A program made the translations under genes and the position numbers. The notes beneath the pieces were generated by a model that saw nothing but the letters and a program-made list of their open reading frames with translations, did no database searches and had not been told where the DNA came from. Positions 3,769-28,702 of a stretch of 64,000 nucleotides of DNA are shown here, piece by piece (position 1 is the first letter of the stretch; every line of letters starts with the position of its first letter). The stretch is taken from the NCBI GenBank assembly GCA_902495325.1, contig CABUWK010000003.1, forward strand, positions 23,645 to 87,644, read 5' to 3'. The DNA is from an uncultured Acidiphilium sp. GTDB taxonomy: Bacteria > Bacillota > Clostridia > Christensenellales > Borkfalkiaceae.

Positions 3769-5625
3769 TTATTCCGGTTTTACCGCGATCGCGCCGAAAT
3801 ATCGCAGACCTGCGGTTATATTGCCCGCCGCGTCGATCAGGTTTCTGCCCTTTATCGCAAGCGCGCCGACGTAACATTTTTCTTCTGCGGGAGCGAAACG
3901 GGTAATTTTTTCATAGCCGTCGAAATCACCGCTCAGATCGAATGCGGGGTCGAAACCGAACGCTTTGGAATCCGCCGCAATCTCGGCGAAATTTGCGCTC
4001 ATGTTATAATAAACGTTAGACAGAAACAGATAATCTTCCCCCATATCGGTAAAACGGATATATCCGTTATTCTTCACCGGGCTGTAAAAAATGTTGTTTT
4101 TAAAGTAAAACCCGTTCGGCGAAGACGAATCGTATTCGGAATCCCATTTCGTAACGGTCATAAGCGGCTGCGAGGAGTTATCCGTAAAAATAACCGTGTT
4201 GTTTTCGAAATATACGTTATCGCAGGGCCCCGCGACATGCATAAGCGCGGGATAATTCCCCTCGGTTTTTCCGTTACGGGCGAACACGTTGTTTCTTATG
4301 TATGCGCCGTTCCAGTCGGCTTTGCCTTTCATCGTTACGATTTTGCCGTTTTCGTCCTTGCGCACGTTTCCCTCTTCGTCGCAAAGGGCAACCTGACCGC
4401 CCGTATTGCAAAGCAGGATCCCGCCGCCGTCGTTATCGTGCGAATAGTTATAACGGAAAGTCACGTTGCGGCAACCTATATCGATATCGAACCCCTCTCC
4501 GTCCGCAGCGCCGTTCGCCAGGCGACAGAACGCCGCTTCGTTGAACTGCATTACGATATCCGAAGAAGAGATCGGCCACATTCCCACGTTAGCCGTTCCG
4601 CTTCTGCCGAGATAGTTTGCGTTATAGGAAACGTTTCTTTCGAAATATCCTCCCTTAACGCCTATCATAACGAGACCGTCTCCGCCCGTGATGTCGGTAC
4701 GATTTCCCACGTAATTTACGTTTTTCGAAGGATAATAACCGTGCTCGTCGTCACAATAAGGATTGACGCCCCAGGCAACGCCGATTTTTTTGACCCAGTT
4801 GCTCGTCATGAACACGCCGCTTCTCGAAACTTTCTCGATGCGGTTGTTCTCGACCCACACATTTTCGAGCCAACACGGCACCGTTCCCGAATCGGTATTG
4901 AAAACGATCCCTCCTCGCTCGTACACAAACGCTTCGTCCACTTCTTTCACACCGTTTTTGCCGAGTTCTCCGAGCTTTGCAAGATAGCTTTCTTCCCCGT
5001 CCGGTTTCACCCAGTTCCAGTTCACGTTGTGTATATAACAACCGGAAATAACGATATTTTCGTTATGCCCTTTCGTAAACACGTATATTCCGCGCAATCC
5101 CTTCGGATTTGTGATCTCGAGATTTTTCACTCTCACGTTCCCGCCGCTCACGTACACGGCATTTTCGTTGCCGTTTCCGTCGATCACGGCTTGCTTTTCG
5201 CCGTAAGACGACAGCATAAGCGGCGTTTTTTCGGAAGAGGAATAACCGCTTACTTCGACGGTACCTTTGAAAGTTCCTTTCAGAAAGATCTGCAAAGCGC
5301 CTTTTTTCGACTGTGTTCCGATCACTCTGTTGAGTTCTTCGACGCTCTTTTTAGGCGAAGTTTCCGAAAACCCGTCGTTTTCGTCGTTTCCGCCGTCCGC
5401 GTCGAAATACACGTCCGTATAAGCCCCCGTATTTACCTCGTCATACTTCGGCGCAAACGTAAGGTTCGCGTAACCGCTCAGATCTTCTTCCGCAGGCGGT
5501 TTTCCGCCGCCGGAAGAAGACTCCGCATCGGTCGGGCTTCCGTGATCTCCCCCCGGCGAACAGGAACTCAGCGCGCCCGCGAACACAAGGGCGAACGCCG
5601 CCAGAAATGCGATAAATCTTTTCAT
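3769..5625 (-). CDS. Secreted lipoprotein with right-handed parallel beta-helix (pectate-lyase fold), glycanase-like; paralog 1 of 3
   Basis: 618-aa ORF with lipobox MKRFIAFLAAFALVFAGALSSC. It shares these motifs with 10814..12409 and 12425..14323: NPKGLRGI, WGVNPY, GGDGLV, ANVGMWPI, DGEGFDIDI, YNYSHDNDGGGILLCN. Confidence 0.85.
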   Translation of the reverse strand: MKRFIAFLAAFALVFAGALSSCSPGGDHGSPTDAESSSGGGKPPAEEDLSGYANLTFAPKYDEVNTGAYTDVYFDADGGNDENDGFSETSPKKSVEELNRVIGTQSKKGALQIFLKGTFKGTVEVSGYSSSEKTPLMLSSYGEKQAVIDGNGNENAVYVSGGNVRVKNLEITNPKGLRGIYVFTKGHNENIVISGCYIHNVNWNWVKPDGEESYLAKLGELGKNGVKEVDEAFVYERGGIVFNTDSGTVPCWLENVWVENNRIEKVSRSGVFMTSNWVKKIGVAWGVNPYCDDEHGYYPSKNVNYVGNRTDITGGDGLVMIGVKGGYFERNVSYNANYLGRSGTANVGMWPISSSDIVMQFNEAAFCRLANGAADGEGFDIDIGCRNVTFRYNYSHDNDGGGILLCNTGGQVALCDEEGNVRKDENGKIVTMKGKADWNGAYIRNNVFARNGKTEGNYPALMHVAGPCDNVYFENNTVIFTDNSSQPLMTVTKWDSEYDSSSPNGFYFKNNIFYSPVKNNGYIRFTDMGEDYLFLSNVYYNMSANFAEIAADSKAFGFDPAFDLSGDFDGYEKITRFAPAEEKCYVGALAIKGRNLIDAAGNITAGLRYFGAIAVKPE

Positions 5626-5644
5626 CGTTTCCTCCTCGGTCTGC

Positions 5645-7927
5645 TTACTCCTCTGCCGCGCGGTAGCCTTCCGGCAAAGTCACTTTTCTCGTTCCGTCGC
5701 TGTTTTCCATCGTGACGAAGCCCCCCTTTACGGGAACGCTTATCCGATAGCGTACGGCTACCGTTTCCTTTCGCAAACGAACCACCTTTTCGGTTTCGTT
5801 CACTCCCACAAACCCGCTCACGACGAGAACGATCATATTCGCGGCATAAGAGCCGAAACCGTGATTAAGGCTGCACCGGATACGGTCGTGTTCCCACAGC
5901 GTACCCGTAACCGAAGCCATTTTATAGTAAGATCCCTTTGCGGATTCCAGGAACTTTTCGCCAAGCCCCTGTCTTGCAAGATAATCCGATCTCAGCATGT
6001 TGCCGATAAAGGCGTTGGATTTCGCAACGTTGGGATAAACTTTCTCCTCGTCGCGCGAAGGACCGAACTTTTCAACAAGCGTCCGATAGAGCCGGGGATA
6101 ACGATTTTTATCGGCGGTGCCGAAATAAAAAGCGTAATACTGGCAGGTTTCGGAGATATTTCCGGACAGCACGAGCTTTCCGTCTTTCCGGATCATATTG
6201 TCTTCGAAAAACTCGCCGTTATAAGACAGTTCTCTTATTTTTTCGCGCAGTTGCGAGGCTTTTTTCACGCTGTCGCGATCGCCGTAAAGCTTACCGAAAC
6301 TTTCGAGCGCGGCGGCATAAAGCATGTTCGACGGAAAGTTTACTCCCTTTACGTATTCGGCGTCCCCTGCCTTGGACCACTCGACAAACACCCAGTTGGA
6401 AAGATCCTCCAGCAGACCGAATTCGTTTTCGAATTGCCTGAAATACCGGACGACCTCTCTCGCCTTCTGCTCGCTTATCCCGATCAGCGAAACATCGTCG
6501 GTACGGATAAAACAATCGGCAAGTTCGAGCAGATAAAAAAGCATCCAGTTGGGGATAAACTCCACGTTTCCGAAATCGGCGGGATAGCACATCGCGAGAA
6601 TTCCCTTGCCGAGTCCGAGATCTTCGGGCTGAAAAGCATAATTTTCCAGAAAGTTCCGCTCTACCGTATTACCGCCCGTAAAGAGTTTTTCCGCCCGCGC
6701 CGAAAAATAGGAATCGCAAAGCCAGCCCGCACGCTCTCTCGAAGGGCAATCGGTCAGAACGTCGACGGCGTTCTGAGCCAGCGTATTTCTCGCCGCCTCG
6801 ACGATCGCGTTCAGCTTTTCGTCGTCGCAACGGAAAACCAGTCTCTTCGTTTCCGGATTTTCGTATCTTACAAGCCCTTCTTCCACGGCGGAAACACTAC
6901 CGGAAACCACAAGGATCTTCACGTATCTCGCAGTGTAAGGCTCGAAGGAAATGTGTCTGAACTCCCCTTTTTTTACTTCGTAAGAAATGACGTTTAATGT
7001 GTCGTTACGCCAGAAATCGACGGCTATAGGTTGATCTTCCGTTATTTCTTCCCGGTTGTCGATCTCTTCGAACACAACGTAAACCACGGAATCTTCTTCT
7101 GCCCTGAAACTTGAGGACAAAAACCCCGTGATCGAAACGGGATACCGGAATACCGCATATTCGCCGGCATGCAGTCTGCCGTCGAAAGCGCCGCATTTCT
7201 CTTTTTTATAGCCGTACCCGTAAACGTCGTCAAACGGGGCGATTTCCAGCTCCTCGCGCCGGAAAATTCCGATCGAATCGAGCGTAAGATATCTCACGTC
7301 GCCGAACTTATCTTCACTCGCTTTGAAAAACCTTCCTTTTTCGACAAAGCGATAGGTCTCGGCTTTAAAATCGAGATAAGCTACGTTTCTCGGCAGATAT
7401 TTCTTACAGGCAAACGCGCGCACCTTCGTTCCGGCGAATTTCGCGCCGTTTATGATCTCCTGCGGCGGAAGATCGAACCGGTAACTCTCGGTGAAACTAC
7501 GCTGAAAAGAGAATCTTGCAACTTTTCTGTATCTCTCCCGGAACACGCGGCAGTCTGTTTTTTCGTCTGTTGCGAAAATAATTTTTCCGTCTGCCTCGAC
7601 CTCGGCTTGCAGAAACGACGGCTGATCGAGCGAATAAAAACTTTTGCAGTTATATCCGGCTACTTCTATAAAAAGTCTGTTGCCGCCCTTTTCGCCCTGC
7701 AGTTTTATCTCGTCTACGCGATAGACCCCGTGAGCGGCGCGCGCCGGACCGTAAGCGACGAGTTTTCCGTTAAGAAAAGCCCTGTAAAAACAACTCGCGG
7801 CAGCCCTCAGCGTAAATTCACCGCAATCGCCGAACTCCCACGCGAAAACGCACGTGAGATTCATTGTTTTTTCTTCTCCGTCCGCCCAGACGGGAACGGC
7901 TTTCTGAAACGGTTCGTAATCAAACAT
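5645..7927 (-). CDS. GH78-like six-hairpin glycosidase (alpha-L-rhamnosidase family), cytoplasmic
   Basis: 760-aa ORF with no signal peptide. TDCPSRERAGWLCDSYF resembles the GH78 DCP.R(D)ERLGWTGD motif, and GTLWEHD...SLNHGFGSY is GH78-like at the C-terminus. It is a paralog of 26257..28401. Confidence 0.75.
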   Translation of the reverse strand: MFDYEPFQKAVPVWADGEEKTMNLTCVFAWEFGDCGEFTLRAAASCFYRAFLNGKLVAYGPARAAHGVYRVDEIKLQGEKGGNRLFIEVAGYNCKSFYSLDQPSFLQAEVEADGKIIFATDEKTDCRVFRERYRKVARFSFQRSFTESYRFDLPPQEIINGAKFAGTKVRAFACKKYLPRNVAYLDFKAETYRFVEKGRFFKASEDKFGDVRYLTLDSIGIFRREELEIAPFDDVYGYGYKKEKCGAFDGRLHAGEYAVFRYPVSITGFLSSSFRAEEDSVVYVVFEEIDNREEITEDQPIAVDFWRNDTLNVISYEVKKGEFRHISFEPYTARYVKILVVSGSVSAVEEGLVRYENPETKRLVFRCDDEKLNAIVEAARNTLAQNAVDVLTDCPSRERAGWLCDSYFSARAEKLFTGGNTVERNFLENYAFQPEDLGLGKGILAMCYPADFGNVEFIPNWMLFYLLELADCFIRTDDVSLIGISEQKAREVVRYFRQFENEFGLLEDLSNWVFVEWSKAGDAEYVKGVNFPSNMLYAAALESFGKLYGDRDSVKKASQLREKIRELSYNGEFFEDNMIRKDGKLVLSGNISETCQYYAFYFGTADKNRYPRLYRTLVEKFGPSRDEEKVYPNVAKSNAFIGNMLRSDYLARQGLGEKFLESAKGSYYKMASVTGTLWEHDRIRCSLNHGFGSYAANMIVLVVSGFVGVNETEKVVRLRKETVAVRYRISVPVKGGFVTMENSDGTRKVTLPEGYRAAEE

Positions 7928-7931
7928 AAAT

Positions 7932-10784
7932 TTATAATTCCTTTTTAAAAACGATATCGAAGTCCATTCCGATCGCCTCGTCCTTCACTTCGTATCTTTC
8001 GGGCAAAGGCGCGCCGCAAGCCGCCGATCCCACGCCCGTGGTTTTGTAATCCAGGAAAAACATCGTTTTCCCCGTATGGCAGTCCATTTCGAAATCGTGC
8101 TTTTTATAATCGCAGATATCGAACGGCGTAGCCTGAAAACAGAAGTCTTTCTCGCTCTGAAAACGTACGGAAACCTTCCCGTCAGAGAGTTCCGCCATCC
8201 TCGAATCGCATCTTTCTCCGCTATCCTGCGGCTTGAGATAAACGAAGTTCATATCGGAAACTTTACTTTTATAAAGCGATACGGGCAATCCCTCTTTGCG
8301 GTCGGGATAATTTTCCTTATCTCCCCTGCCGAAATATTCGCAATCCGAAAACTTGCCGGAAAAGGCGAACTTAAAACCGAACCGCGCGACTTTAGTCACC
8401 CAATCGCGCTTTTTCGCCTTTAAAGATATCTTCACGGCATCGGAGAAAAACTCGTACACAAGATCGAAATCGTAAAGCGGTTCCACGATATCCGCAACGA
8501 TTTTTCCCCTGACCAAGACCCTGTTACCTTCCGCACTCATTTCGTCCGCATGCGAACGGATAAATCTGAGCCTTAAACGCTGCCATTCTTCCAGATAAGG
8601 CAGATCGTTATCGATCGGCTCGCGGTACAACGAGAAATTTACGGGAGACAAAAGCGTTTCGCCGTTTAAACAAAGGCTTTTTATCATTCCGTCCTTGCCG
8701 ATCTCCGCCGTATAATTCCCGCCGTCGATCCTGACCCCGTTCCCGGACACCGCAACGTCAGCCTTTCCCGTTTTCGCAATCGGTTTAAAATCCGCGGAAA
8801 CGATTATCTGCCTTGTCGCAATTTTGTCTTTCCCCTTATAAAAATCAAAAATAACCGTGCTATAGCCCGATTTTTTAAAAACCAGAGGAAATTCTTTCCC
8901 TTCATGCGGAGGGATACCGGAAATATCGTAAACCCTTTCTTCTTCAACGATCCCGTCCGTTTCGAAACGCGCTTTCAGCGTTAAATCGTTCAAGGTAAGA
9001 AAATCGTACCGGTTGAAAACGGCAAAACCGTTTTCGGTCCTCCGGACGTCGACGGGAGCGTAAACCTGAGCGATTTCGTAAAGCGAAGGGTGAACGCGTC
9101 TGTCGGTATCCACCAGTCCGTCCACGCAGAATTTCCCGTCGTACCGGCTGCACGGTTCCTTTTCGTTGAAATCGCCGCCGAACAGATACCTGCCGTCTTC
9201 CGTTCTTACCGTGTGGCAACACCATTCCCAGACGAATGCGCCGAGAAAAGTTTTTTCGCCGTAAATATAGTCCCAGTATTCTTTCGCGTCCCCGCAGGAA
9301 TTTCCCATTGCATGCGTATACTCGCAGAGCATGAACGGCACGCCGATTTTCTCTTCTGTTTTCCTGCGGCAGGTATCGACGCTTGCGTACATCATGGACG
9401 CAACGTCCATATATTCCGGATCCCTCCATTCGGTTTCCGGCAAAAGCCTTGTGGTGTTGCCTTCGTAATGCACCGGACGGGAATCCACCGAATGAAGATA
9501 TCTGCTCGCCTCTTTGAAGTTTTCACCCCAGCCTGCTTCATTCCCGAGCGACCACATTACGACAGACGTTCTGTTCTTATCCCTTTCGTACATTCTCTCC
9601 TGACGGTGAACGTAAACGTCGCGGTAATCGGGGTTATTTGCGAGATCGTCGAAATGACGAGGATCGCCGTAATAATGTATCGTTTCCAGACCGTGCGTTT
9701 CGATATCCGCCTCTTCCAGAACGTAGATACCGTATTCGTCGCATAACCCGGCAAAAAGCGGGTGCGGCGGATAGTGCGAGGTTCTGACCGCGTTGATATG
9801 ATACTTTTTGAAAAGCTCGAGATCTTTTCTCATGAGATCCTCGCTTTCCACAAAACCGTCGTTCGTCACGGAATGTCTGTTCACGCCTCTGAACTTCACG
9901 GGAACCCCGTTGATTTTGAACACGGAATCTTCTATCGTTATCTTTCTTATTCCGACTTTTTCTTCGATAAACTCGCCCGCGCACGACAGGACAAGTCTGT
10001 AAAGATAAGGCGTTTCTGCCGTCCAGAGCGAAGCGTTTGCGATCGTAAAGGATATCTCGTCGCCGAAGGCGCAGCCGATCAGCTTTTCTCCGTCGTATAG
10101 CTTCGCCCCGGCGGGCTTATCGCATTTCAGCGTGATAAACCCGTCGATAAGATCGGTATCGACGGAGATTTTATAGTCCGTCAGATGCCCTTGCGGACGG
10201 GATAAAACGTAAACATCGCGGAAAATGCCGCTCATACGCAGTTTATCCTGATCTTCGAAATATGTCCCGGAACACCACTTCAGAACGACGGCTTTGATTT
10301 TGTTCTCCCCTTTTTTTACGAAAGGAGAGATATCGAACTCTGCCGGCGAATGGGAAACCGTGGAATATCCGACGAATTGATCGTTCACGAAAAGGTACAG
10401 ACAGCTGTCCGCTCCGTCAAACACGATATAGTGTTTTCTGTTTTCGTCCTTCACGAAATACGAAGTGACGTAAACGCCGCAGGGATTTTCTTTATCGACC
10501 TTCGGCGGATCGAACGGGATCGGATAAAAAAAGTTGGTATACTGGTTATAATCAAATCCCTTTACCTGCCAATTGAACGGGACCGAAAAAGTTTCGGTCG
10601 GCTCTGATAAGAATGCTTCCGGCGTAAATTCCGGTATGAATGCGAATTTCCATGAACTTAAAAGAGTGACTTCCTGCGATTTCGTTTTATCGCCGGAAAA
10701 ATTTTCGTCCGTAAACGGGATATAATAACTTCTCGTTTTCAGCGCGTTTACCTGCGTTACGATTTTTTCGTGATACAATTCCAT
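7932..10784 (-). CDS. GH2 beta-galactosidase (LacZ-like)
   Basis: 950-aa ORF. The acid/base region WSLGNEAG and the nucleophile region MLCEYTHAMGNS match LacZ WSLGNESG / ILCEYAHAMGNS. NRHS and HYPPHP motifs are also present, and there is a C-terminal small-chain-like domain. Confidence 0.92.
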   Translation of the reverse strand: MELYHEKIVTQVNALKTRSYYIPFTDENFSGDKTKSQEVTLLSSWKFAFIPEFTPEAFLSEPTETFSVPFNWQVKGFDYNQYTNFFYPIPFDPPKVDKENPCGVYVTSYFVKDENRKHYIVFDGADSCLYLFVNDQFVGYSTVSHSPAEFDISPFVKKGENKIKAVVLKWCSGTYFEDQDKLRMSGIFRDVYVLSRPQGHLTDYKISVDTDLIDGFITLKCDKPAGAKLYDGEKLIGCAFGDEISFTIANASLWTAETPYLYRLVLSCAGEFIEEKVGIRKITIEDSVFKINGVPVKFRGVNRHSVTNDGFVESEDLMRKDLELFKKYHINAVRTSHYPPHPLFAGLCDEYGIYVLEEADIETHGLETIHYYGDPRHFDDLANNPDYRDVYVHRQERMYERDKNRTSVVMWSLGNEAGWGENFKEASRYLHSVDSRPVHYEGNTTRLLPETEWRDPEYMDVASMMYASVDTCRRKTEEKIGVPFMLCEYTHAMGNSCGDAKEYWDYIYGEKTFLGAFVWEWCCHTVRTEDGRYLFGGDFNEKEPCSRYDGKFCVDGLVDTDRRVHPSLYEIAQVYAPVDVRRTENGFAVFNRYDFLTLNDLTLKARFETDGIVEEERVYDISGIPPHEGKEFPLVFKKSGYSTVIFDFYKGKDKIATRQIIVSADFKPIAKTGKADVAVSGNGVRIDGGNYTAEIGKDGMIKSLCLNGETLLSPVNFSLYREPIDNDLPYLEEWQRLRLRFIRSHADEMSAEGNRVLVRGKIVADIVEPLYDFDLVYEFFSDAVKISLKAKKRDWVTKVARFGFKFAFSGKFSDCEYFGRGDKENYPDRKEGLPVSLYKSKVSDMNFVYLKPQDSGERCDSRMAELSDGKVSVRFQSEKDFCFQATPFDICDYKKHDFEMDCHTGKTMFFLDYKTTGVGSAACGAPLPERYEVKDEAIGMDFDIVFKKEL

Positions 10785-10813
10785 ATTTTCGTCTCCCGCA
10801 TGCAGCGGCGATT

Positions 10814-12409
10814 TCAGCGAATAACGGTTATCCCGTCGGTTTGCGCGGCGATTTTTCCGGCGTTTTCGTATCCGTCGAGATCCTTCGGAAGGGTTATCGT
10901 GCCTTTAAACGGATAAGCCGAGGTTTCCTTTGCCGAAACGATACACTTTTCGCCCGTGTTTTTGTAGTAATTCCCCGAAAACTCGAAACGATCGCAATGA
11001 TCGGTATTGAAATCGCATTCGTTTTTTACGGGAGAATAAAAGAGATTGTTTCTGAAAACGAGGTCGTCCTGATTCCCGCAACCGGCGTAATCCCCGCTCC
11101 TCGTGATCAGTTGCCCGGGCATATCCGGGCGCATTACGATCGTGTTGTTTTCGACTACGAGCTCTCTGCAAGTGCTCGAAAAATGAATAAAATTCGGATG
11201 TTCGGGGGCTTTGCCGTTATTTACCGACACGCAGTTTTTAACGGTAACTCTGCGCCATACGCCTTCGGCGCGATATTCTTTCTGCCTGCCGTTCTCGTCC
11301 GTTACGGGATTCCCGTGCTCGTCAAACTGCGGCTGAGTGGTTTCGGCGTTACATAAAAGCAACGCTCCGCCGTCATTGTCGTGCGCGTAATTATATTCGA
11401 AAAGGATATCCTCGTTGGCGATATCGATATCAAATCCCTCGCCGTCCAGTCCGCCGTGTTCCAGATGCGAATAAGCCGCTTCGTTATAGCGGATCAGAAC
11501 GTCTTTACAGCCGATCGGCCAGATGCCCGCATTCGCGTTCCCCGTTCTGCCGAGATAATTCGAATGGTAAGAAACGTTTCTTTCTATCACCGAGTGGACC
11601 GATCCGATCAGAACGATCCCGTCTCCGCCCGTATACGAAACTTTATTGGAAGAAATCTCGATCCTTTCCGACGGATACCACCCGTTCTCGTCGCTGTAAT
11701 AGGGATTTACCCCCCAGCAGGTACCGGGACGGCGGATCCACAACCCCGTAAGAAAAATTCCGCTTCGAGAAACCCTCGTAACTTCGTTGCCGATAATTCT
11801 GATATCGCGGTAATTGCAGGGCTGTTTCGCTTCGTCGCCCGCAAGAAAAATAATACCGCCCGTTTCGTAATAAAACCGTTTTTGCGGACAAACCGTTTCG
11901 GGATCGATCTCTCTGATATCGATCTCTTTCTCTCTTTTTTCGTAAATCCAGTTATAATTGACGTCTTTTACGACGCAGTTTTTTATGGTGAGATATGCCA
12001 GACTGCCCGCCTCTTTTACCTTTACGAAAATACCGATAAGTCCTTTCGGATTCGTAACCGCAATTTCGGAAATTACGGCATACCCGCGCGATATTTCCAC
12101 CGCGCAGTCGTTGCCGTCGCCGTCAAACAAAGGCAGTTCGCCCTCGCCGTAAGACGATATCGTAAGCGGAAGATCCTCATGCGCCGCCATTCCTCCGGCT
12201 TCGAGTTTTCCTTTGAAAACGCCGCCGCGCTTTATCAGAATGCGGAGAGGTCTTTCGAGTTTCAGTATTTCGTTGAGTTTACCGAGACTTTTAAAGGGAG
12301 TTCTCTCGCTTTTCCCGTCGCTCAGATCGCTGCCGTTTACGGCGTCGAAATAATAGGTATCGTACCGGGCATTGCAAAAATCATATTCTTCCGGTCGTTG
12401 ATCAAACAT
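10814..12409 (-). CDS. Beta-helix protein, paralog 2 of 3; no signal peptide, so predicted cytoplasmic
   Basis: 531-aa ORF starting MFDQRPEEYDFCNARYDTYYFDAVNG. It carries NPKGLIGI, WGVNPY, GGDGIV, ANAGIWPI, DGEGFDIDI and YNYAHDNDGGALLLCN. Confidence 0.85.
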   Translation of the reverse strand: MFDQRPEEYDFCNARYDTYYFDAVNGSDLSDGKSERTPFKSLGKLNEILKLERPLRILIKRGGVFKGKLEAGGMAAHEDLPLTISSYGEGELPLFDGDGNDCAVEISRGYAVISEIAVTNPKGLIGIFVKVKEAGSLAYLTIKNCVVKDVNYNWIYEKREKEIDIREIDPETVCPQKRFYYETGGIIFLAGDEAKQPCNYRDIRIIGNEVTRVSRSGIFLTGLWIRRPGTCWGVNPYYSDENGWYPSERIEISSNKVSYTGGDGIVLIGSVHSVIERNVSYHSNYLGRTGNANAGIWPIGCKDVLIRYNEAAYSHLEHGGLDGEGFDIDIANEDILFEYNYAHDNDGGALLLCNAETTQPQFDEHGNPVTDENGRQKEYRAEGVWRRVTVKNCVSVNNGKAPEHPNFIHFSSTCRELVVENNTIVMRPDMPGQLITRSGDYAGCGNQDDLVFRNNLFYSPVKNECDFNTDHCDRFEFSGNYYKNTGEKCIVSAKETSAYPFKGTITLPKDLDGYENAGKIAAQTDGITVIR

Positions 12410-12424
12410 TCGGGGAATCTCCTT

Positions 12425-14323
12425 TTATTCGCAGAATGCGCCGAGATATCTCTTACCTGCGGTATTTACCCCCGCAAAATCGAATTTGTTGAGCGAAGCG
12501 AGTTTTTCGCCGAGCGCAAACACGTCTGCATTCCCGGGTTTATAAGCGAAAGCCGCGCTGTATCCCGTTCTTCCGGAAGGCACGGAGATCTTCGGATCCA
12601 CATTTAAAATCGCTTTGGCGTCGCTGATCCCGTTCCATTCGTCAAAGAAGGAGTCCGGGAAATTCCAGTAAAGATTGTTTTCGAAAACATAATCTTCGGA
12701 ATACGCCATATTGATTTTCGAGTATTGTTCGCCCGGGCTGCAGAAAATATTGTTTCTGAAGACAAAACCCTTCTGATTGCCGCAATTGCCGTAGTCCGCG
12801 GTATAAACGAGATCCTGCGAGAACATCCCCTTTTTCATTACGACGATGTTGTTTTCGCACACGGCGTTATAGCAATCGCTCGACACGACCAGAAACGCCG
12901 CGTTGGAACCGCCTGCACCGTTATTCGCAAACACGTTGTTTCTGATAAATACTTTATCCCAGTTTCCGCGGTCTTCGAAGGTTTTCTGTCTGCCTGTCGC
13001 GTCGTCGATCACCGCCCTGCCGTTTTCATCGAATAAAGGCATCTGCGAATGTACGTTACATAAGAGCAGTCCGCCGCCCGCGTTGTCATGCGAATAGTTA
13101 TACTGAAAATATATTTCGGAGCACCCTATGTCGATATCGAAACCCTCGCCGTCGGTACAGCCGTTATCGAGATGCGTATAGCCCGCTTCGTTATACCGGA
13201 TATAAACTCTTCTCGCATTGACGGGCCATATTCCCGCGCAGGCGTTGCCCGCTCTGCCCAGAATGGCGGAATGGATCACCGTGTTCCTCTCGATCCAGCA
13301 ATCCTGCACGCCGATGGGAACGATCCCGTCGCCGCCGACGTAGGAAATATCGTTGCCGCTTATCACGACGAACTCCGGCGGATACCAGCCGTCGTCCTGA
13401 CTTCTGTATTTGTTCGCGCCGCCCCAGTTGCACCCGTTTCCGGACTGCCACTGGCTGTCGAAAATGATACCCGCTCTTCCCGTCTCGCGGACGATGTTGT
13501 TATTGACCCAGACGTTCCGGAACATTCTGTAGTGTTCGCCGTCACCCTTGGGCGCGGAAAAATAGATCCCGCAGGTACCGTAATGGTAATTGCCGTCGGA
13601 ACATACTTCCTTCACGTTTACGACGTCTTTGGTATTGCCTTCCGCTTCGGCAAAAGCCTCCACGCCGAAATCGTAAGTCCAGTTCCAGCAGATCTTGTGC
13701 ACGAAACAGTTTTCGACGACGATATTTTCGCTGACGCCGTTTTTAGCCGCTTCTACCCTGATCCCCTGCGTGCCGGTCGGGTTGGACACTTCCAGATCGA
13801 AAATTCTCGCGTTGTCACCCAGAAGGTATACTGCGCTGCCTCCGGTCCCGTTGATCGCCGCACGCCCCTCGCCGTAACTGCCGACATACAACGGCTTCTC
13901 TTCGGAAGAGGTGAATTTTTCGAGTATTAACTGTCCGTTGAACGACGTTCCGCCTTTGAACAGGATCTTCAGAGGTCCGGTCGACCCGTTTACGAGAGCC
14001 GAAGCCGCCGCCAGGGTCTTTTTTGCCGAAGCTTCGCTTTTGCCGTCGTTTGCGTCGTCACCGTTTTCCCCGTCAAAATAATACACCGAGTAATCTCCGT
14101 AATCCACGGTTTTATAAACGGGAGCCGAAGGGACTTCGACATACACCGAATCGTCCGTTCCGGGGTCGGATCCCGGATCGGAAGCCGGCTCCGACGTGCT
14201 TTCCTCCCCCGTATTCCCGGAAGTTCCGGACGGATCGGGATCCTTTTTCCCGCACGACGCGAAACATGCGCACGAAACGGCAAAAAACATGACCGACATA
14301 AGAACGCAAAATAATTTTCTCAT
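12425..14323 (-). CDS. Secreted lipoprotein, beta-helix paralog 3 of 3
   Basis: The ORF track gives 12425..14425. I prefer the internal ATG at 14323 (MRKLFCVLMSVMFFAVSCACFASC lipobox), which is preceded by GGAGAAAAAG. Motifs: GGDGIV, CAGIWPV, DGEGFDIDI, YNYSHDNAGGGLLLCN. Confidence 0.85.
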   Translation of the reverse strand: MRKLFCVLMSVMFFAVSCACFASCGKKDPDPSGTSGNTGEESTSEPASDPGSDPGTDDSVYVEVPSAPVYKTVDYGDYSVYYFDGENGDDANDGKSEASAKKTLAAASALVNGSTGPLKILFKGGTSFNGQLILEKFTSSEEKPLYVGSYGEGRAAINGTGGSAVYLLGDNARIFDLEVSNPTGTQGIRVEAAKNGVSENIVVENCFVHKICWNWTYDFGVEAFAEAEGNTKDVVNVKEVCSDGNYHYGTCGIYFSAPKGDGEHYRMFRNVWVNNNIVRETGRAGIIFDSQWQSGNGCNWGGANKYRSQDDGWYPPEFVVISGNDISYVGGDGIVPIGVQDCWIERNTVIHSAILGRAGNACAGIWPVNARRVYIRYNEAGYTHLDNGCTDGEGFDIDIGCSEIYFQYNYSHDNAGGGLLLCNVHSQMPLFDENGRAVIDDATGRQKTFEDRGNWDKVFIRNNVFANNGAGGSNAAFLVVSSDCYNAVCENNIVVMKKGMFSQDLVYTADYGNCGNQKGFVFRNNIFCSPGEQYSKINMAYSEDYVFENNLYWNFPDSFFDEWNGISDAKAILNVDPKISVPSGRTGYSAAFAYKPGNADVFALGEKLASLNKFDFAGVNTAGKRYLGAFCE

Positions 14324-14829: not shown

Positions 14830-16524
14830 TTAACCTCTCATCTGCTTCATTATGTTATATTGCTGCGTTAAGAAATCAAGATAATCCGCGTCGTCTTCGA
14901 GATAGTTTCTTCTGTAGAACTCCGCAAGCGACAGATTCGGATTTTCGCTGCTCGCGTTGGACGGATTGGTATTGCCCGACCACGCAGACGCCGCAACGCC
15001 GTTCCAGTAAGTATTGAGCGATGCGGAATGAAGCTGGCTCATGCCCGCGTTTCTCGGAAGAATGTAATCGATGATATCGTTATCTACGTAATATTCTTTT
15101 TTCTGAGAATTTGCGATCCAAGCGCGTTCCTCGGCGGTGTAACCGCTGTACAACAGGTTGGACATATTCTGGTTTTCGACAAGGCTGAAGATACCGGAAT
15201 ACGGCGCTTTGGTAAGATAATTCTCTTTGCCTTCGGGATAAGAGTAAGTACCGTCGCCGTTGTTGACCCAGTGAGTGCCTTCCACGCCGTAAGCGCAGAG
15301 ATTATAGTTCGCTTCATCCGAGTACATCCAGTTAAGATATTTTACGATGTCGGCGGCGTTGGACGAAGAAGACATCACGATCGCCGCTTTATACCCGGTG
15401 GAAAGACGCATGAACCCTTTCTTGTCGGGAGAACTTTCTCTCGCGAGAGGTCCTAACACGGTAAATTCCGCTTCCGGGTTCTGAGCTTTTGTCTTTCTTG
15501 CCACCTTGATGAGATGCGAAACGGTCGGATCCGTCATGAACACACCCGTAAGCCCCGCGATAAACTGACCTTCCGACGCTTCGAGCGATTGCGTATTGGC
15601 GTCGCTCGGCAGAATCTTGGAATCGTGTACCCATCTGTATTCCGTCTGTAAAAGGTCTTTGAATCCTTCCTGCGCAAAACCGGGAGCGATTATCGTTTCG
15701 CCTTTTTCGTTCGTTGTCTCGCCGTAGAAGAAATAGCCCGCGTTGGAGAAGGCACCCGTAAACACTTTTTCGATATCCCAGATCGCACCGCTGATCGAAT
15801 ACGAAGAATCGTTATCGTGCCCCGTAACGTTTTTTGACTTCATCTTTTTGCACATATCCTCGAACTGCTCGACGGTGGTTAAAAGCGTAAGTCCTTTTTC
15901 CGCAGCTTCGTCGGCGTCGTCGGTGTAACCGACGGCTCTCATGTAGTCCTTTCTGACGAGAATTCCGTGTTTGTACGGATTGACGTAAGAAGGGATCCCG
16001 ACAAGTTCGTCGTTGAAAGTCGTCATCGTGTTAAGATCGGTTTTTTCGGAAATATTGTATCCGTACTGATCGACGAGTCTCGCGAGGTTGTAATAGATGC
16101 TCTGCCCGATCGCGTAATCGTCGATTCCCGAATCGAATCTCGTGTGCGATATCACCACGTCTACCTGTTCGTGCGCGACCAGGCTGTTCGCGAGAACGCT
16201 TGACATATTGGTGCCGAGATACGAAACGCTGAAATCGAGCGAAATGCCCGTATCGGCATAATAAGCGTCTTCGACCGCTTTTTTAACCGCTTCTTCTTCG
16301 GATCCTTTCACCACGCTGTATTCGGAAGAACCGCCGCAGTAAATAACGATCTTTTTCCCCGCGGGGCGTTTGGAAGGATCGTATTTCGTACCGCTTTCGG
16401 ACGAAGAATCCGCCGAAGACTGCTGATTGTCCGTGCTGTCCTTTTTCCCTCCGCCGCAGGCAGCGAAAGAAGCCGTGATCGCAAGCGCAACGATAAGACT
16501 GAGTGCTTTTTTGAAGATTTTCAT
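14830..16524 (-). CDS. ABC transporter extracellular solute-binding lipoprotein (large LplA-like sugar/oligosaccharide SBP)
   Basis: 564-aa ORF with lipobox MKIFKKALSLIVALAITASFAACGG and a Ser/Asp-rich linker. Its size and genomic context are typical of LplA-type SBPs. Its start overlaps the stop of the upstream gene (ATGA at 16521-16524). Confidence 0.85.
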   Translation of the reverse strand: MKIFKKALSLIVALAITASFAACGGGKKDSTDNQQSSADSSSESGTKYDPSKRPAGKKIVIYCGGSSEYSVVKGSEEEAVKKAVEDAYYADTGISLDFSVSYLGTNMSSVLANSLVAHEQVDVVISHTRFDSGIDDYAIGQSIYYNLARLVDQYGYNISEKTDLNTMTTFNDELVGIPSYVNPYKHGILVRKDYMRAVGYTDDADEAAEKGLTLLTTVEQFEDMCKKMKSKNVTGHDNDSSYSISGAIWDIEKVFTGAFSNAGYFFYGETTNEKGETIIAPGFAQEGFKDLLQTEYRWVHDSKILPSDANTQSLEASEGQFIAGLTGVFMTDPTVSHLIKVARKTKAQNPEAEFTVLGPLARESSPDKKGFMRLSTGYKAAIVMSSSSNAADIVKYLNWMYSDEANYNLCAYGVEGTHWVNNGDGTYSYPEGKENYLTKAPYSGIFSLVENQNMSNLLYSGYTAEERAWIANSQKKEYYVDNDIIDYILPRNAGMSQLHSASLNTYWNGVAASAWSGNTNPSNASSENPNLSLAEFYRRNYLEDDADYLDFLTQQYNIMKQMRG

Positions 16525-18362
16525 ATTTTCGCCTCTTTTATATTATTTTTTTTATTTCCGATAAATAAAACCGCCGCAAGTGCCGGAAATACCGGCGGAA
16601 CGACGCCGACCGACGATCTGCAGCCTCCCGGGGAAGCCGATCCGGAAGATCTGTCTTCGCTTGCCGTACCGGCGGGATCTCCTTCGCCCTTCACGGAGAT
16701 TGCGGCTTTTACGGTCCGCCGCAGTTCCTTCGGGGAGTTCTCGTCCTTTACGGTAAGCACGGCGTCGATCCCGTTTTCCGAACTCTCCCAGACAAACTGA
16801 ACCGCTTTTACTTCGATCGTTTCTCCGCCGAAAGTAACCGCTTTTATCGTAAACTCCGCATTTCCGAGATCCTCTTCTCGCCCGATCTCCAGAGACGGTT
16901 CCGGGATCGTTCTGATAAGATTTCCGAAATCGTCCGCATTGTTGTTGGTGATCCCGCTTATACCGATTGCCGCACAGAACGCGTCGTCGTAAGTCCATTG
17001 CCAGAGACCGTATCCTCTGTCCTTCAGATTGGAATTCGCAAATTTCGCATAGTTCAGCTGCGAAGAACAATCGAACGACATATTCCACGCGGTCGCCTTT
17101 TTCACATATCCGTCGAAGTTATCCGCGGTAACCGTTGCAAGCGTCGCGACGGGAAGTTCCGGGAAAACGTCGTGCATTTTAGCGATCTGCCCGTCTTCGC
17201 CGTCATAAAAACTGATGGCAAGCGTCTGCTTTTCGGCTTTATGCTTTTTGATTTCGGCGGCGATCAGAGCGCATGTCAGCGGATTTGTATCCTTTATCTC
17301 AATGACCGCAATCAGATCTTTGCCTTTGCAGTATTCCAGAACGTCGCCGAGAAAAGGGATCGCCGATTGTTTCCCCGTGACTTTTCCGTCGATATTTTTT
17401 ATCACCGAAAAAGCAGAAAGCTCGCTTTTTGTCATTTCGGAAATTTTCCCGCTGCCGTTCGTCGTTCTGTTTATCGTCGCATCGTGCATGACGGCAAGTT
17501 CGCCGTCTTTCGTCATCTGAACGTCGATTTCCACGTGGGTCGCGCCGCATTCGTAAGCGGCGGCGATCGCATCGATCGTATTTTCGTTCTCTGCCCGCGA
17601 AAGCCCCCTGTGCGCCACGTTATAATATGTTCTCGGAACGGAATACAACGGATATTTGCCGTAAACTTCCGTCAGCAACGAAAAGTTTTTGCATACGATC
17701 CCGTATGCGCCGGTCGTAACCGCCGCGGCAAAACCGTATTCGCTTTCGTTTCCGGCAACCGTCCATACGGTCGTAAACCGTGCCTGCAGATAGGCTGTCG
17801 TGTCCTCGTCCGATTGTTTTTCGGTTAAAACCACAATATTTCCGCCGCCTCTTCTCGCAGCCGCAAGATATTCGTAAGGCTCCGGAACATCTTTTTCCGT
17901 TGCATCGTAAATCGTTCTTACCCCGACGGTGTTTTCGCTCACGAACGCAAGCAGATCTTCGCTTTTGCTCATGACCGAAAGATCGGTCAGCTTTGCCCGG
18001 TTGATCTCGTTTGCGAGACCTTCGGCATCTCCCTTATCGTCCGTTTTCAGAATAAAAAGGATCCCGCTTTTATCGAGTGCGCTCTTTATGCTTCCGATGT
18101 CGCCGGCAACGTCGCCGCTTAAGTATTTTGCATTTCCTTCTCCGTATAAAAACACGGCGGAAGATGGTTTCACGGTCGCCTTTCTCATCTCGTCAAAGGA
18201 CTTTTCGTCTGCCGCTTCGGCAATCACCGACGGCGAAGCCATAAGTCCGGTATAGATTTCTTTTACGTCGGTATAGGCATCCGCTTTCATTCTTTCCGGA
18301 AAACCGGCAAACGCAAGAACGAATGCGGCGGCGGCAAGCAGAACGTTTTTCGGATGTTTCAT
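16521..18362 (-). CDS. Extracytoplasmic glycerophosphodiester phosphodiesterase (GDPD) domain protein with a C-terminal membrane anchor
   Basis: The ORF track extends to 18818, but that N-terminus overlaps the permease gene. The ATG at 18362 (MKHPKNVLLAAAAFVLAFAGF signal) overlaps the permease stop (ATGA 18359-18362). GDPD motifs: HRGLSRAENENT, ATHVEIDVQMTKDGELAVMHDATINRTTNGSG. The C-terminal TM is VVPPVFPALAAVLFIG. Confidence 0.85.
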   Translation of the reverse strand: MKHPKNVLLAAAAFVLAFAGFPERMKADAYTDVKEIYTGLMASPSVIAEAADEKSFDEMRKATVKPSSAVFLYGEGNAKYLSGDVAGDIGSIKSALDKSGILFILKTDDKGDAEGLANEINRAKLTDLSVMSKSEDLLAFVSENTVGVRTIYDATEKDVPEPYEYLAAARRGGGNIVVLTEKQSDEDTTAYLQARFTTVWTVAGNESEYGFAAAVTTGAYGIVCKNFSLLTEVYGKYPLYSVPRTYYNVAHRGLSRAENENTIDAIAAAYECGATHVEIDVQMTKDGELAVMHDATINRTTNGSGKISEMTKSELSAFSVIKNIDGKVTGKQSAIPFLGDVLEYCKGKDLIAVIEIKDTNPLTCALIAAEIKKHKAEKQTLAISFYDGEDGQIAKMHDVFPELPVATLATVTADNFDGYVKKATAWNMSFDCSSQLNYAKFANSNLKDRGYGLWQWTYDDAFCAAIGISGITNNNADDFGNLIRTIPEPSLEIGREEDLGNAEFTIKAVTFGGETIEVKAVQFVWESSENGIDAVLTVKDENSPKELRRTVKAAISVKGEGDPAGTASEDRSSGSASPGGCRSSVGVVPPVFPALAAVLFIGNKKNNIKEAKI

Positions 18363-19240
18363 CCCTTTACCGCTCCTATCGTGATTCCGTCTACGAAATA
18401 TTTCTGGATAACGGGGAAGATCGCAAGCAACGGAGCAATCGCTATCACGACCGCCGCGGATTTCGCCGAAAGCACGGGGGTAATGGCGGAAGACCCGTCC
18501 AGTCCGCCCGAAGTGCCGGAATTTTCGAGGATCTGTTTCAGCACAAACTGCAACGGACGAAGAGATTTGCTCCTTTCGCTCTGCCCTAAATATAACAGCG
18601 CGTCCATCCAGCTGTTCCACCTGTCCACGAACATAAAAAACGCAATGGTTAAAACCATGGGCACGGAAATAGGCAGGAATATTTTCACAAGCACCTGAAA
18701 ATCGTTTGCCCCGTCTATCATGGCGGCTTCTTCCAGCGCGGCGGGCAGCGAATAGAAGTAACTGCGCACCAGGATGATGTGGTAAAGGCTGAACATTCCC
18801 GGAATGATCAGCGCCCACATGGTATCGTAAAGACCGATATTTCTGATCACAAGATACAGAGGAATGGTCCCGCCCGCAAAAAACATGGTTATCATATAAA
18901 AGATATTCAGCCCTTTTATTCCGACGACGTATTTTTTACTGAGCGCGTAAGCCGTTATGAGCGATACCGTTACGGACAAAACCGTGCCGGACACCGAAAT
19001 GATCAGCGAATTCAGAATCGCGCGCAGAATGTTATATTCGTCCGCCGAAAATATGTACTTGTACCCCGCCGTGGAAAAAGCCGCGGGAAACAGTTTATAA
19101 CCGTTTACGCGGAGAGAGATCTCTTCGGTAAACGAACTGATGATCATCATCCAGAACGGCAGAATGAAGGTGATGCAAAGCAGAATGATGATCAGCGCGT
19201 TAAAAATATCGAAAACTCTGTCGCCTTTATACTTTTTCAT
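18359..19240 (-). CDS. Carbohydrate ABC transporter permease (LplC-like)
   Basis: The membrane ORF contains the EAA-type loop ALEEAAMIDGANDFQVLVKIFLP. I chose the start at 19240 (MKKYKGD) because GGGAGAG lies about 7 nt upstream. The ORF-track start at 19267 is also possible. Confidence 0.88.
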   Translation of the reverse strand: MKKYKGDRVFDIFNALIIILLCITFILPFWMMIISSFTEEISLRVNGYKLFPAAFSTAGYKYIFSADEYNILRAILNSLIISVSGTVLSVTVSLITAYALSKKYVVGIKGLNIFYMITMFFAGGTIPLYLVIRNIGLYDTMWALIIPGMFSLYHIILVRSYFYSLPAALEEAAMIDGANDFQVLVKIFLPISVPMVLTIAFFMFVDRWNSWMDALLYLGQSERSKSLRPLQFVLKQILENSGTSGGLDGSSAITPVLSAKSAAVVIAIAPLLAIFPVIQKYFVDGITIGAVKG

Positions 19241-22349: not shown

Positions 22350-23246
22350 ATGTCAAAAAATACAAACTATCCCATTTATAATTTTAATTTGATCGACGGG
22401 CTCTATACGAATTTAATTTTTAACCACAATATCGAGCGTCATTGCCACATTTTCTGGGAGATCACGGTATCTCTGAAAGGCGAATACGTAAATCATTTCG
22501 ACAGCGGCGACATGCTGCTGAAAGCGTGCAGTTTAACGATTATCCGTCCTTCCGACATTCATTACGTCAATATAAAAGAAACTTCGGCTGTATACCGGGA
22601 CATCTACGTTTCCGACGAAAAAATGCGCCGTTTTTCGGAAGTGATACACGAAGGATTATACGACGAATTGTTGCAAAGCCCCACTCCGATCACCTGCGTG
22701 ATAGATAAGGCGCATATGGATTCGATCGAAGCAACCGCCACGAAAATCACGAACTTAAAGGGCAGCCTGAGCAAAAACGAAATAACGATCCTTCACAATT
22801 GCCTGGTATCGGAAGCGCTTTCCGCCTATGCGGAAACGAGATATTATCCGGGCAAACAGACGCCGGACTGGATTCTCGATATGCTTTCGAAACTGAATCT
22901 GCACACCTCGTCGGAATTAGATCCCCCTATTTCGTCGCTGCCGGACCTTATCGAACAAATCGGTTACAGCCACGGGCATATCTGCAGAAAATTCAAGGAA
23001 TATTTCGGATGCACGCTAATCCAGTACATAAACCGTCAGAAAATGGCATATTCAACCACTCTGCTGTTAAACACGAATTTATCCGTTTCGGATATCGCTC
23101 AGACACTCGGTTATTCAAATCAGAGCAACTACATAAACTCTTTCAAAAAGGAATACGGGATGTCCCCGCTGAACTGGCGTAAAAACAATCTGAAGCTCGT
23201 TCATCCCGCCGACCCGCCGTCGGACCGCAACAAAGACGAGACATAA
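22350..23246 (+). CDS. AraC/XylS-family transcriptional regulator
   Basis: 298-aa ORF. The C-terminal double HTH (SDIAQTLGYSNQSNYINSFKKEYGMSPLNWR) is typical of AraC. It is divergent from the glycan operon. Confidence 0.9.
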   Translation: MSKNTNYPIYNFNLIDGLYTNLIFNHNIERHCHIFWEITVSLKGEYVNHFDSGDMLLKACSLTIIRPSDIHYVNIKETSAVYRDIYVSDEKMRRFSEVIHEGLYDELLQSPTPITCVIDKAHMDSIEATATKITNLKGSLSKNEITILHNCLVSEALSAYAETRYYPGKQTPDWILDMLSKLNLHTSSELDPPISSLPDLIEQIGYSHGHICRKFKEYFGCTLIQYINRQKMAYSTTLLLNTNLSVSDIAQTLGYSNQSNYINSFKKEYGMSPLNWRKNNLKLVHPADPPSDRNKDET

Positions 23247-26255: not shown

Positions 26256-26256
26256 G

Positions 26257-28401: not shown

Positions 28402-28466
28402 AATATTCTTTCCCTTCCATCGATCCGGAACACGCCTGTAAGCACGGACCTTCCTTTTTCTCTTCT

Positions 28467-28495: not shown

Positions 28496-28532
28496 TCGAT
28501 TTCCTCCTGTTTTCCCTTTTTATTTTCTTAGG

Positions 28533-28686: not shown

Positions 28687-28702
28687 CCGTGCGGATTCCG
28701 GA

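Follow-up and report, generated by a model that had tools for sequence, protein, structure and literature searches.

The 64-kb window analysed here, the whole stretch of 64,000 nucleotides from contig CABUWK010000003.1 of an uncultured member of the Clostridia, carries on its minus strand three genes for beta-helix proteins, which we name A, B and C (Table 1; all coordinates refer to the window). An initial annotation of this DNA had described the three proteins as similar over their whole length, and this was borne out, as the minus-strand open reading frames (ORFs) share 37–39% pairwise identity, are colinear from end to end (MAFFT), and find one another by tblastn inside the window at E values of 1e-93 to 1e-109, far above chance. 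The same type of search revealed no further beta-helix paralog in the window. The blocks GGDG(I/L)V, G(I/M)WP(I/V), DGEGFDIDI and YNY(S/A)HDN(D/A)GG.LLLCN are present in all three proteins, and NPKGL.GI and WGVNPY are confined to A and B, with NPTGTQGI and WGGANKY as their equivalents in C, so that the motifs quoted earlier for all three or for two proteins were found as described. The longest ORF of C extends to 14425 via GTG; the ATG at 14323 yields a signal peptide and a protein of 632 amino acids (aa), and is the start called by gene callers on 6 independent metagenome contigs.

Localization was deduced by reading the N-terminal sequences. Those of A (MKRFIAFLAAFALVFAGALSSC) and C (MRKLFCVLMSVMFFAVSCACFASC) consist of a hydrophobic signal, a lipobox and then a low-complexity linker rich in Ser, Gly, Pro and Asp. 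B starts with MFDQRPEEYDF and has no hydrophobic segment, and as only 15 nucleotides (nt) separate the stop codon of C from the start of B, there is no space for a hidden upstream start of B. The initial annotation had likewise recognized two lipoboxes and one protein without a signal peptide. A and C are thus predicted to be lipoproteins and B to be cytoplasmic, which would place A and C outside and B inside the cell.

A Pfam scan of the three proteins returned the generic Beta_helix family PF13229 alone (20–31 bits), with no match to PF12708, GH28 or the polysaccharide lyase (PL) families, and the NCBIfam model of the lacto-N-biosidase LnbX (NF047897) gave partial matches far under its equivalog cut-off (1.8e-19 for B, 5.5e-9 for C and 1.9e-7 for A). 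As these matches were generic or sub-threshold, the identity of the family came from a profile search of the Protein Data Bank (PDB) and from Foldseek. A profile of the three sequences matched every solved GH136 lacto-N-biosidase and nothing else meaningful, with E values of 1.1e-27 for ErLnb136 (6kqs), 2e-24 for TnX (7v6m), 2.5e-21 for LnbX (5gqc) and 1.7e-19 for BsaX (7v6i). A 70-sequence family profile matched the GH136 structures at 1e-81 to 1e-97, ErLnb136 being the best at 2.7e-97, and the match extends over these structures from the cap at the N-terminus to the D..GN..G..LGA tail at the C-terminus. B is without the D.AG..G..Y.GA version of this C-terminal tail that A, C and LnbX have in common. 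BLASTP against the catalytic domain of ErLnb136 gave E values of 3e-16 (A), 4e-28 (B) and 1e-22 (C) at 25–27% identity, A being 25% identical over 443 aligned columns.

AF2 models B with high confidence as a beta-helix (pLDDT 95.9, pTM 0.94), and the full-length identity of A and C to the modelled protein suggests that they share this fold. When the model was compared with the PDB by Foldseek, the six best matches were all GH136 (E 2e-17 to 3e-16, TM 0.55–0.67); the next family, GH120, followed ten orders of magnitude behind at 2e-7, while PL6, PL9-like, GH28 and GH87 structures reached only 1e-5 to 4e-4 with TM values of 0.3–0.5, and pectate, alginate and chondroitin lyases and PDB tailspikes 1e-5 or worse. 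The initial annotation had called the proteins beta-helix proteins, with which the PF13229 matches and the model of B agree, and had proposed, besides Pfam searches, a comparison of AlphaFold structures with PL1-, PL9-, GH28- and GH55-type beta-helices by Foldseek; that comparison led to GH136 instead. Membership in the pectin lyases or in GH28 was rejected, given the missing Pfam matches to these families and the low Foldseek scores.

CAZy families are defined by sequence, and with significant similarity to the GH136 catalytic module as the criterion, A, B and C belong to the GH136 superfamily by their sequences, modelled fold and predicted catalytic residues; judging by the pairwise scores, they would probably clear the usual filter of E<1e-15 plus coverage with a dbCAN HMM for GH136. 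The motif set, which had been regarded as private to the three paralogs, is in fact a GH136 signature, since GGDGI, AGIWP, D-x6-D and YNYSH.N.GG..C also occur in LnbX, ErLnb136, TnX and BsaX (profile and BLASTP alignments). The earlier view that the proteins could not be assigned and might form an uncharacterized family therefore holds in part only: the family is the characterized CAZy family GH136, whereas the clade itself is uncharacterized. The confident match to a characterized family of known specificity concerns the family and does not extend to the specificity, because the clade departs from the lacto-N-biosidases in features that contact the substrate.

In ErLnb136, D568 is the acid/base, D575 the nucleophile, and W548 the platform for the galactose of lacto-N-biose (Pichler et al., PMC7335108). 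The counterparts of the octapeptide DGEGFDID in the alignments are DSMAWDAD in ErLnb136 and DGQAWDAD in LnbX, so that the first Asp of DGEGFDID is the predicted acid/base (D375 in A, D322 in B and D391 in C) and the last Asp the predicted nucleophile (D382, D329 and D398, respectively). The mapping onto ErLnb136 assumes an offset of +2 between the PDB SEQRES record and the published numbering, chosen because it is the only register that gives Asp at both 568 and 575 and Trp at 548. The catalytic residues of LnbX, which we take to be D411 and D418, agree with the alignment. Both catalytic Asp residues are invariant among 70 homologs, in which complete or almost complete conservation also extends to the Asp between them, to Trp in GIWP, to NE in YNEA and to N, H, N and C in YNYSHDN...C. 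PDB entry 24mr, a sequence variant of LnbX, has Ser at the position of the last Asp in the 70-sequence profile alignment and looks like a nucleophile mutant. With the GH136 catalytic pair conserved, A, B and C are predicted to be retaining glycoside hydrolases that perform double-displacement hydrolysis of a beta-glycosidic bond. This alignment supports the suggestion, made in the initial annotation, that the acidic DGEGFDID block is catalytic. Of the two activities considered there, glycanase or lyase, the latter is unlikely, as the conserved pair belongs to a retaining hydrolase and a lyase mechanism finds no support.

The A/B/C profile scores the solved GH136 enzymes at 73–100 bits and each of the 150 best cluster matches at 162 bits or more, which places the characterized enzymes far from the A/B/C clade. 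The differences concern the pocket in particular. In place of the Trp that stacks on galactose in GIWPW (W548 of ErLnb136), A and B have Ile and C has Val, and the clade as a whole has I, V, M, H or Q, while more distant homologs from Acidobacteriota and Actinomycetota retain GIWPW. Relative to ErLnb136 and LnbX there are three deletions: about 23 residues after the NG turn, corresponding to most of loop 1 of ErLnb136 (330–341), 17–30 residues after ITN, and 10 residues of loop 2 (520–543). A, B and C have insertions of their own, of about 20–30 residues, after DVN.NW and after LLLCN. Shortening of loops 1 and 2 has been tied to greater openness of the site, which then admits branched substrates (Pichler et al., PMC7335108). 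The missing Trp and the loop deletions argue, without proving it, against the same closed −1/−2 Gal-stacking pocket in the A/B/C proteins.

A further departure concerns the partner protein. Characterized GH136 enzymes require a fused or co-expressed GH136-I/LnbY protein (PMC7335108, PMC8106489). A, B and C have no fused GH136-I domain, B beginning at the helix cap and A and C carrying a signal peptide and linker only, and the intergenic gaps across the A-to-C stretch, 4–29 nt, leave no space for an additional gene. A separately encoded partner was sought with a probe from Blautia hansenii, where a 1502-aa cell-surface GH136-like protein is directly preceded by a 269-aa membrane-anchored, SurA/PpiD-like protein (both in L065, 7170..12499). 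Homologs of this 269-aa probe are encoded immediately beside beta-helix genes at loci that include those of Paenibacillus, Acidobacteriota and Ruminococcaceae, and an 11-sequence profile of them matches the Helicobacter pylori chaperone HP_0175 (5ez1) at E 1e-10, HP_0175 being the closest structural relative of the GH136-I domain (Pichler et al., PMC7335108). These proteins are probably the LnbY-type partner family. An hmmsearch of six-frame translations of 86 loci (L001–L086) and of the window with this indirect chaperone-profile probe recovered 16 ORFs of this chaperone-like kind in 13 loci, and none in the window, in L001–L027 or in L084–L086. On this probe, together with the gene-by-gene accounting of the operon, we consider the chances to be even that A, B and C work independently of a GH136-I/LnbY partner.

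To place the clade, the A/B/C profile was searched against 1.84 billion cluster representatives (50% identity clusters), which returned 6957 proteins with E<1e-3, of which 536 had E<1e-30. The close homologs, with 32% identity or more, form about 55 clusters at 90%, all from metagenomes or metagenome-assembled genomes, and belong to uncultured Clostridia, Candidatus Enteromonas, Candidatus Scatosoma, Erysipelotrichaceae, Acutalibacteraceae and a few Paludibacteraceae and Bacteroides; where named, they are annotated only as "right-handed parallel beta-helix repeat-containing protein". With 76% identity to B, the uncultured Clostridiales bacterium UMGS1072 (L007) represents the nearest species. 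In a neighbour-joining tree, A, B and C fall into three sister subclades, each with orthologs from other species. Signal peptides are missing throughout the B subclade, whereas in the A and C subclades almost every protein carries a lipobox or, in a few instances, a signal peptide that lacks one. The separate subclades and the consistent signal-peptide pattern indicate that the triplication, and the shift of one copy to the cytoplasm, are old and have been maintained. DNA of the window is found in faecal and gut metagenomes, including those of bovine gut, and a bovine metatranscriptome contains contig fragments 100% identical to the gene for the 1111-aa protein described below, A, the GH2 gene, C and the genes for the binding protein and the glycerophosphodiester phosphodiesterase (GDPD), which is weak but positive evidence of transcription.

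A, B and C lie in a co-directional block on the minus strand, from 22044 to 322 (about 21.7 kb), which a GC-rich hairpin terminator at 286–308 closes. The order from the 5' end is ATP-binding cassette (ABC) permease fusion, GDSL esterase, second ABC permease, GDPD, binding lipoprotein, 153-aa membrane protein, C, B, GH2 beta-galactosidase, 760-aa Bac_rhamnosid6H protein, A and 1111-aa surface lipoprotein. The whole arrangement is repeated in the related loci L007, L008, L009 and L085. In more distant relatives a constant core is kept, comprising the extracellular-domain protein, the two permeases, the large binding protein, the ~150-aa membrane protein, a beta-helix lipoprotein and a surface protein of 1000–1200 aa; the variable part consists of GH78-like, GH2 or GH35, GH123 (the beta-N-acetylgalactosaminidase family), SIS/ROK and SASA-type esterase genes and of up to four beta-helix paralogs. 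Four beta-helix paralogs occur in L088 (1..11821), around the same pair of GH2 and GH78-like genes, and paralog expansion is thus recurrent in the clade.

Table 1. Positions of the beta-helix genes, their predicted catalytic octapeptides and neighbouring genes in the 64-kb window.
Feature	Position	Strand	Remarks
Paralog A	3769..5625	-	618-aa lipoprotein, GH136-like beta-helix glycosidase (predicted); lipobox LSSC
Paralog B	10814..12409	-	531-aa cytoplasmic GH136-like beta-helix glycosidase (predicted)
Paralog C	12425..14323	-	632-aa lipoprotein, GH136-like beta-helix glycosidase (predicted); lipobox AVSC or FASC
Catalytic octapeptide DGEGFDID of A (predicted)	4480..4503	-	Alignment to GH136 D-x6-D pair
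Catalytic octapeptide DGEGFDID of B (predicted)	11423..11446	-	D322, D327, D329 invariant in 70-sequence alignment
Catalytic octapeptide DGEGFDID of C (predicted)	13130..13153	-	Alignment to GH136 D-x6-D pair
ABC permease (LplB-type) with N-terminal extracellular domain of ~320 aa	20038..22044	-	First operon gene; domain = residues 25-345
Cytoplasmic GDSL/SGNH esterase, 265 aa	19227..20024	-	Pfam Lipase_GDSL_2
ABC permease, 293 aa	18359..19240	-	Pfam BPD_transp_1
Secreted GDPD, 613 aa, N-terminal extra domain	16521..18362	-	Pfam and NCBIfam scans
ABC solute-binding lipoprotein, 564 aa	14830..16524	-	Pfam SBP_bac_1; conserved in related loci
Polytopic membrane protein, 153 aa	14340..14801	-	Directly upstream of C
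Cytoplasmic GH2 LacZ-type beta-galactosidase, 950 aa	7932..10784	-	Pfam GH2 domains; NCBIfam Bga2A/LacZ E 7e-195
Cytoplasmic GH78-fold (alpha/alpha)6 rhamnosidase-related protein, 760 aa	5645..7927	-	Pfam Bac_rhamnosid6H E 2.8e-19
Surface lipoprotein, 1111 aa	322..3657	-	Last operon gene; weak Ig-like Big_2 similarity
AraC-family regulator	22350..23246	+	Divergent; Pfam HTH_18 and AraC_binding; conserved beside locus in relatives
DUF4432	25341..26429		Second sugar cluster
GH78-like paralog	26257..28401		46% identical to 5645..7927
NagA	28703..29899		Second sugar cluster
NagB	29865..30692		Second sugar cluster
ROK-type kinase	30652..32055		Second sugar cluster
AraC regulator, divergent	32254..33135		Second sugar cluster

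Several products of the operon deserve comment. The GH78-fold gene is the most consistently co-conserved partner of the beta-helix genes; the AF2 model of its product (pLDDT 94.5) has GH78 alpha-L-rhamnosidases as its 11 best Foldseek matches, the best being 2okx (E 7e-38, TM 0.77). The extracellular domain of the permease, considered as a candidate analogue of the GH136-I partner, exists as a separate membrane-anchored protein of ~310 aa in the Enteromonas-type loci L084, L086 and L090, and a search with the domain alone returned no homologs. A gene for a membrane protein of 150–165 aa lies directly upstream of a beta-helix lipoprotein gene in L007–L009, L014, L018, L020, L084, L085 and L090 as well, and the 153-aa protein of the window matches no Pfam or NCBIfam family. 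The 1111-aa lipoprotein has 3–4 internal repeats of ~130 aa (...AY.Y.N...GRL...GK.VSLKIR...WY...DL.G...YITLD...YIADL), no PDB or Pfam match beyond the weak Big_2 similarity and no tandem repeats in its DNA; it is presumed to bind glycan, and surface proteins of 1000–1200 aa follow the beta-helix gene in L084–L086, L088 and L089. The GDSL/SGNH esterase is likely an oligosaccharide deacetylase. As to the GDPD, a GTG-initiated extension of its ORF (16521..18818, 765 aa) overlaps the permease gene, and the metagenome calls give a protein of 613 aa with a signal peptide; about 240 residues without assigned function precede its catalytic domain.

Outside the operon, a second sugar cluster (25341..33135) links the GH78-like family to amino-sugar catabolism. 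The window also encodes two adjacent paralogs of 480 and 494 aa with a double zinc-ribbon at the N-terminus and an unassigned remainder (42979..44421 and 44459..45943, plus strand) and, on the minus strand, a GT87-like membrane glycosyltransferase (47558..48910), a trehalase/GH63-like six-hairpin protein (48888..50102) and a 735-aa protein with weak zinc-finger matches only (50302..52509).

The best explanation of these data is that A, B and C are ancient paralogs on a deep, uncharacterized branch of GH136. Given their homology, fold, conserved catalytic residues, localization signals, gene order and conservation across species, we regard it as likely that they are GH136-type retaining hydrolases with a division of labour between the outside and the inside of the cell. 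On the outer face of the membrane, A and C would hydrolyse beta-linkages of an extracellular heteroglycan and release oligosaccharides, while the 1111-aa protein would hold the glycan and the secreted GDPD would strip phosphodiester decorations from it. The 564-aa lipoprotein would capture the fragments for import by the ABC system. In the cytoplasm, B would cut the same type of bond in shorter oligomers, the GH2 enzyme would remove galactose, the GH78-fold enzyme rhamnose (or a related sugar) and the GDSL esterase acetyl groups, and N-acetylhexosamine would pass to NagA and NagB. Extracellular depolymerization followed by intracellular processing had already been proposed in the initial annotation and agrees, as far as sequence allows, with an operon that codes for both an ABC importer and exo-glycosidases of the cytoplasm. 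Taken together, the rhamnosidase-like, beta-galactosidase, GH123/amino-sugar, esterase and GDPD genes suit a cell-wall or capsular heteropolysaccharide of bacteria better than milk or mucin glycans or pectin. As the likeliest substrate we would name, tentatively and at well below even odds, a glycan of rhamnose, galactose and N-acetylhexosamine, possibly acetylated and bearing glycerol phosphate, for example a bacterial cell-wall or capsular polysaccharide. A more specific version, in which a self-sufficient GH136 subfamily has dispensed with the partner, opened the pocket to a cleft and depolymerizes a non-host glycan, most attractively such a polysaccharide of other gut bacteria with acetyl and glycerol-phosphate decorations, is conceivable and, in our view, rather doubtful.

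The assignment to GH136 itself invites the view that A, B and C are ordinary lacto-N- or galacto-N-biosidases that release Gal-beta-1,3-HexNAc from host glycans (milk oligosaccharides, mucin, glycosphingolipids), the disaccharide then being split by the beta-galactosidase. Lacto-N-biosidase is the sole GH136 activity in the literature searched. The GH136 locus of Eubacterium ramulus likewise couples the enzyme with a beta-galactosidase and not with a GH112 phosphorylase, and GH35, GH123 and amino-sugar genes in related loci, like NagA and NagB nearby in the window, would suit such a pathway. LnbX also releases galacto-N-biose from glycolipid glycans. It is nevertheless unlikely, since the equivalent of W548 is replaced clade-wide and kept in more distant homologs, and since three pocket-wall loops, including most of loop 1 and part of loop 2, are absent; neither a GH136-I partner nor a GH112 gene was found. 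Moreover, the most consistently co-conserved gene encodes a GH78-fold enzyme and rhamnose is no sugar of the host, the organism turns up in faecal or gut metagenomes, bovine ones among them, and three paralogs at their level of identity argue for distinct specificities.

The bovine habitat, together with the GH78-fold enzyme, GH2 beta-galactosidase and GDSL esterase of the operon, could instead point to plant-pectin enzymes that act in the herbivore gut on rhamnogalacturonan-I or a related glycan rich in rhamnose and galactose; one related locus has GH28, and the beta-helix fold is typical for pectin enzymes. PL1, PL6, PL9, GH28 and GH87 structures, however, match the model of B at 1e-5 to 1e-4 (TM 0.3–0.5) as against 1e-17 for GH136, and the catalytic residues are the GH136 pair as opposed to the triad of GH28. 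Genes for GH105, PL or uronate catabolism were not found in the operon or the window, and GH123, NagA/NagB, SIS/ROK and GDPD do not suit pectin, which leaves this view with a low probability, and one that we would put below that of host-glycan biosidases. It is very improbable that the proteins are non-catalytic adhesins or glycan-capture proteins whose motifs are conserved for structural reasons only. Beta-helix proteins are often adhesins, Pfam gives a generic family only and two of the three proteins are surface lipoproteins, but 70 homologs show no variation in either catalytic Asp or in the GH136 active-site motifs around them, an adhesin role makes no sense for the cytoplasmic B, and genes for glycoside hydrolases and an importer surround the three. 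We rejected a non-catalytic adhesin on the conservation of the catalytic residues and the location of B.

Against the reading of A, B and C as GH136-type hydrolases for a bacterial heteroglycan, several points must be set. Their identity to the characterized GH136 enzymes is only about 19–27%. Hydrolase activity across the clade is a prediction, and an active site more open than the lacto-N-biosidase pocket is suggested by alignment gaps. As regards the partner, the B. hansenii probe did not match ErLnb136 (phmmer), nor did the 11-sequence profile match 6kqs, and a very divergent partner, or one encoded outside the searched window, may exist. The genomic context can also be read in other ways: the rhamnosidase-like, beta-galactosidase and esterase genes fit pectic rhamnogalacturonan-I too, GH123 and amino-sugar genes fit host or microbial glycans alike, and the GDPD gene is present only in the species of the window and L008 among related loci. 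Finally, the metatranscriptome contigs are shallow and may reflect DNA carry-over.

In the literature searched, GH136 has a single characterized activity, that of lacto-N-biosidase, and is used as a marker gene for the use of human milk oligosaccharides; no other GH136 activity and no closer characterized family was found there. The GH136-like superfamily is very large (about 7000 clusters at 50% identity, E<1e-3) and mostly unexplored, and the characterized enzymes form an outlying part of it. The clade described here, about 35–60 clusters from uncultured gut Clostridia and Bacilli and a few Bacteroidota, has kept the catalytic machinery and lost the stacking Trp, the pocket loops and, apparently, the partner. 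A, B and C would best be filed as an uncharacterized, apparently partner-less GH136 subfamily and not as a new enzyme family. If active, they would demonstrate that proteins of the GH136 fold can reach their structure and function in the absence of LnbY, would bring a new specificity to GH136 and would caution against equating every metagenomic GH136 hit with the use of milk oligosaccharides. Should a self-sufficient enzyme for a non-host glycan prove to be at work, it would represent the first new GH136 specificity, and the locus, including its two conserved membrane components, a Gram-positive system that scavenges glycans of microbes in the guts of ruminants and other hosts. With two of its three paralogs predicted outside the cell and one inside, the operon may also serve as a model for the division of labour between surface and cytoplasm in Gram-positive gut bacteria. 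The finding overturns nothing; rather, it points to unexplored specificity, and possibly chaperone-independent folding, in a family that has been treated as a single-function marker.

Among known systems, LnbX has been noted to resemble phage tailspikes (PMC8106489). The likeness of A, B and C to phage tailspikes and depolymerases is one of general right-handed beta-helix architecture: the best viral structural match reaches E 2e-10, with TM values of about 0.45–0.58 and 10–16% identity. A, B and C have no trimerization or virion-attachment module and lie among chromosomal metabolic genes. As the viral likeness is generic, a phage-depolymerase origin was rejected as the closest relationship.

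LnbX of B. longum (5GQC), BsaX (7V6I) and TnX (7V6M) are homologous right-handed beta-helices over their full length, with an N-terminal cap YYVDS..G.D.N.G, a C-terminal D..GN..G...LGA tail in common with A and C, and the common motifs GGDGI, AGIWP, D-x6-D and YNYS..N; LnbX lies outside the cell in association with the membrane, as is predicted for A and C. Identity to these enzymes is about 19–25%, and A, B and C differ from them in the Ile or Val that replaces the Trp after GIWP, in the lack of the large pocket loops and the presence of the clade-specific insertions of ~20–30 residues, and in the lack of an adjacent LnbY-type chaperone gene. A and C are anchored as lipoproteins, whereas the known enzymes are large multidomain surface proteins, and operon content and host habitat differ.

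The closest sequence match of A, B and C is ErLnb136 of E. ramulus (6KQS), in which the D568/D575 pair is conserved. This enzyme and RhLnb136 of Roseburia hominis also come from Clostridia, at loci that pair the enzyme with an ABC importer; the E. ramulus locus has a beta-galactosidase as well, like the operon described here, and RhLnb136 is intracellular, like B. ErLnb136, however, needs a fused N-terminal, all-helical GH136-I domain (~220 aa), which is wrapped around the helix and supplies Y145 of the active site, and RhLnb136 needs a separate GH136-I subunit, whereas neither a fused domain nor a partner gene was found for A, B and C. W548 and most of loop 1 (330–341) of ErLnb136 are absent from them, and loop 2 (520–543) is shortened.

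In its overall design, the operon resembles the LplABC/AraC-type loci of Gram-positive bacteria, such as the yes/lpl pectin loci of B. subtilis, which combine a large binding lipoprotein, two permeases and an AraC regulator, and also join surface enzymes with cytoplasmic exo-glycosidases and esterases, as is the case here. It differs from these loci in that its depolymerases are GH136-like instead of PL or GH28, and it adds to their components a membrane protein of ~150 aa and an extracellular domain of ~320 aa fused to a permease.

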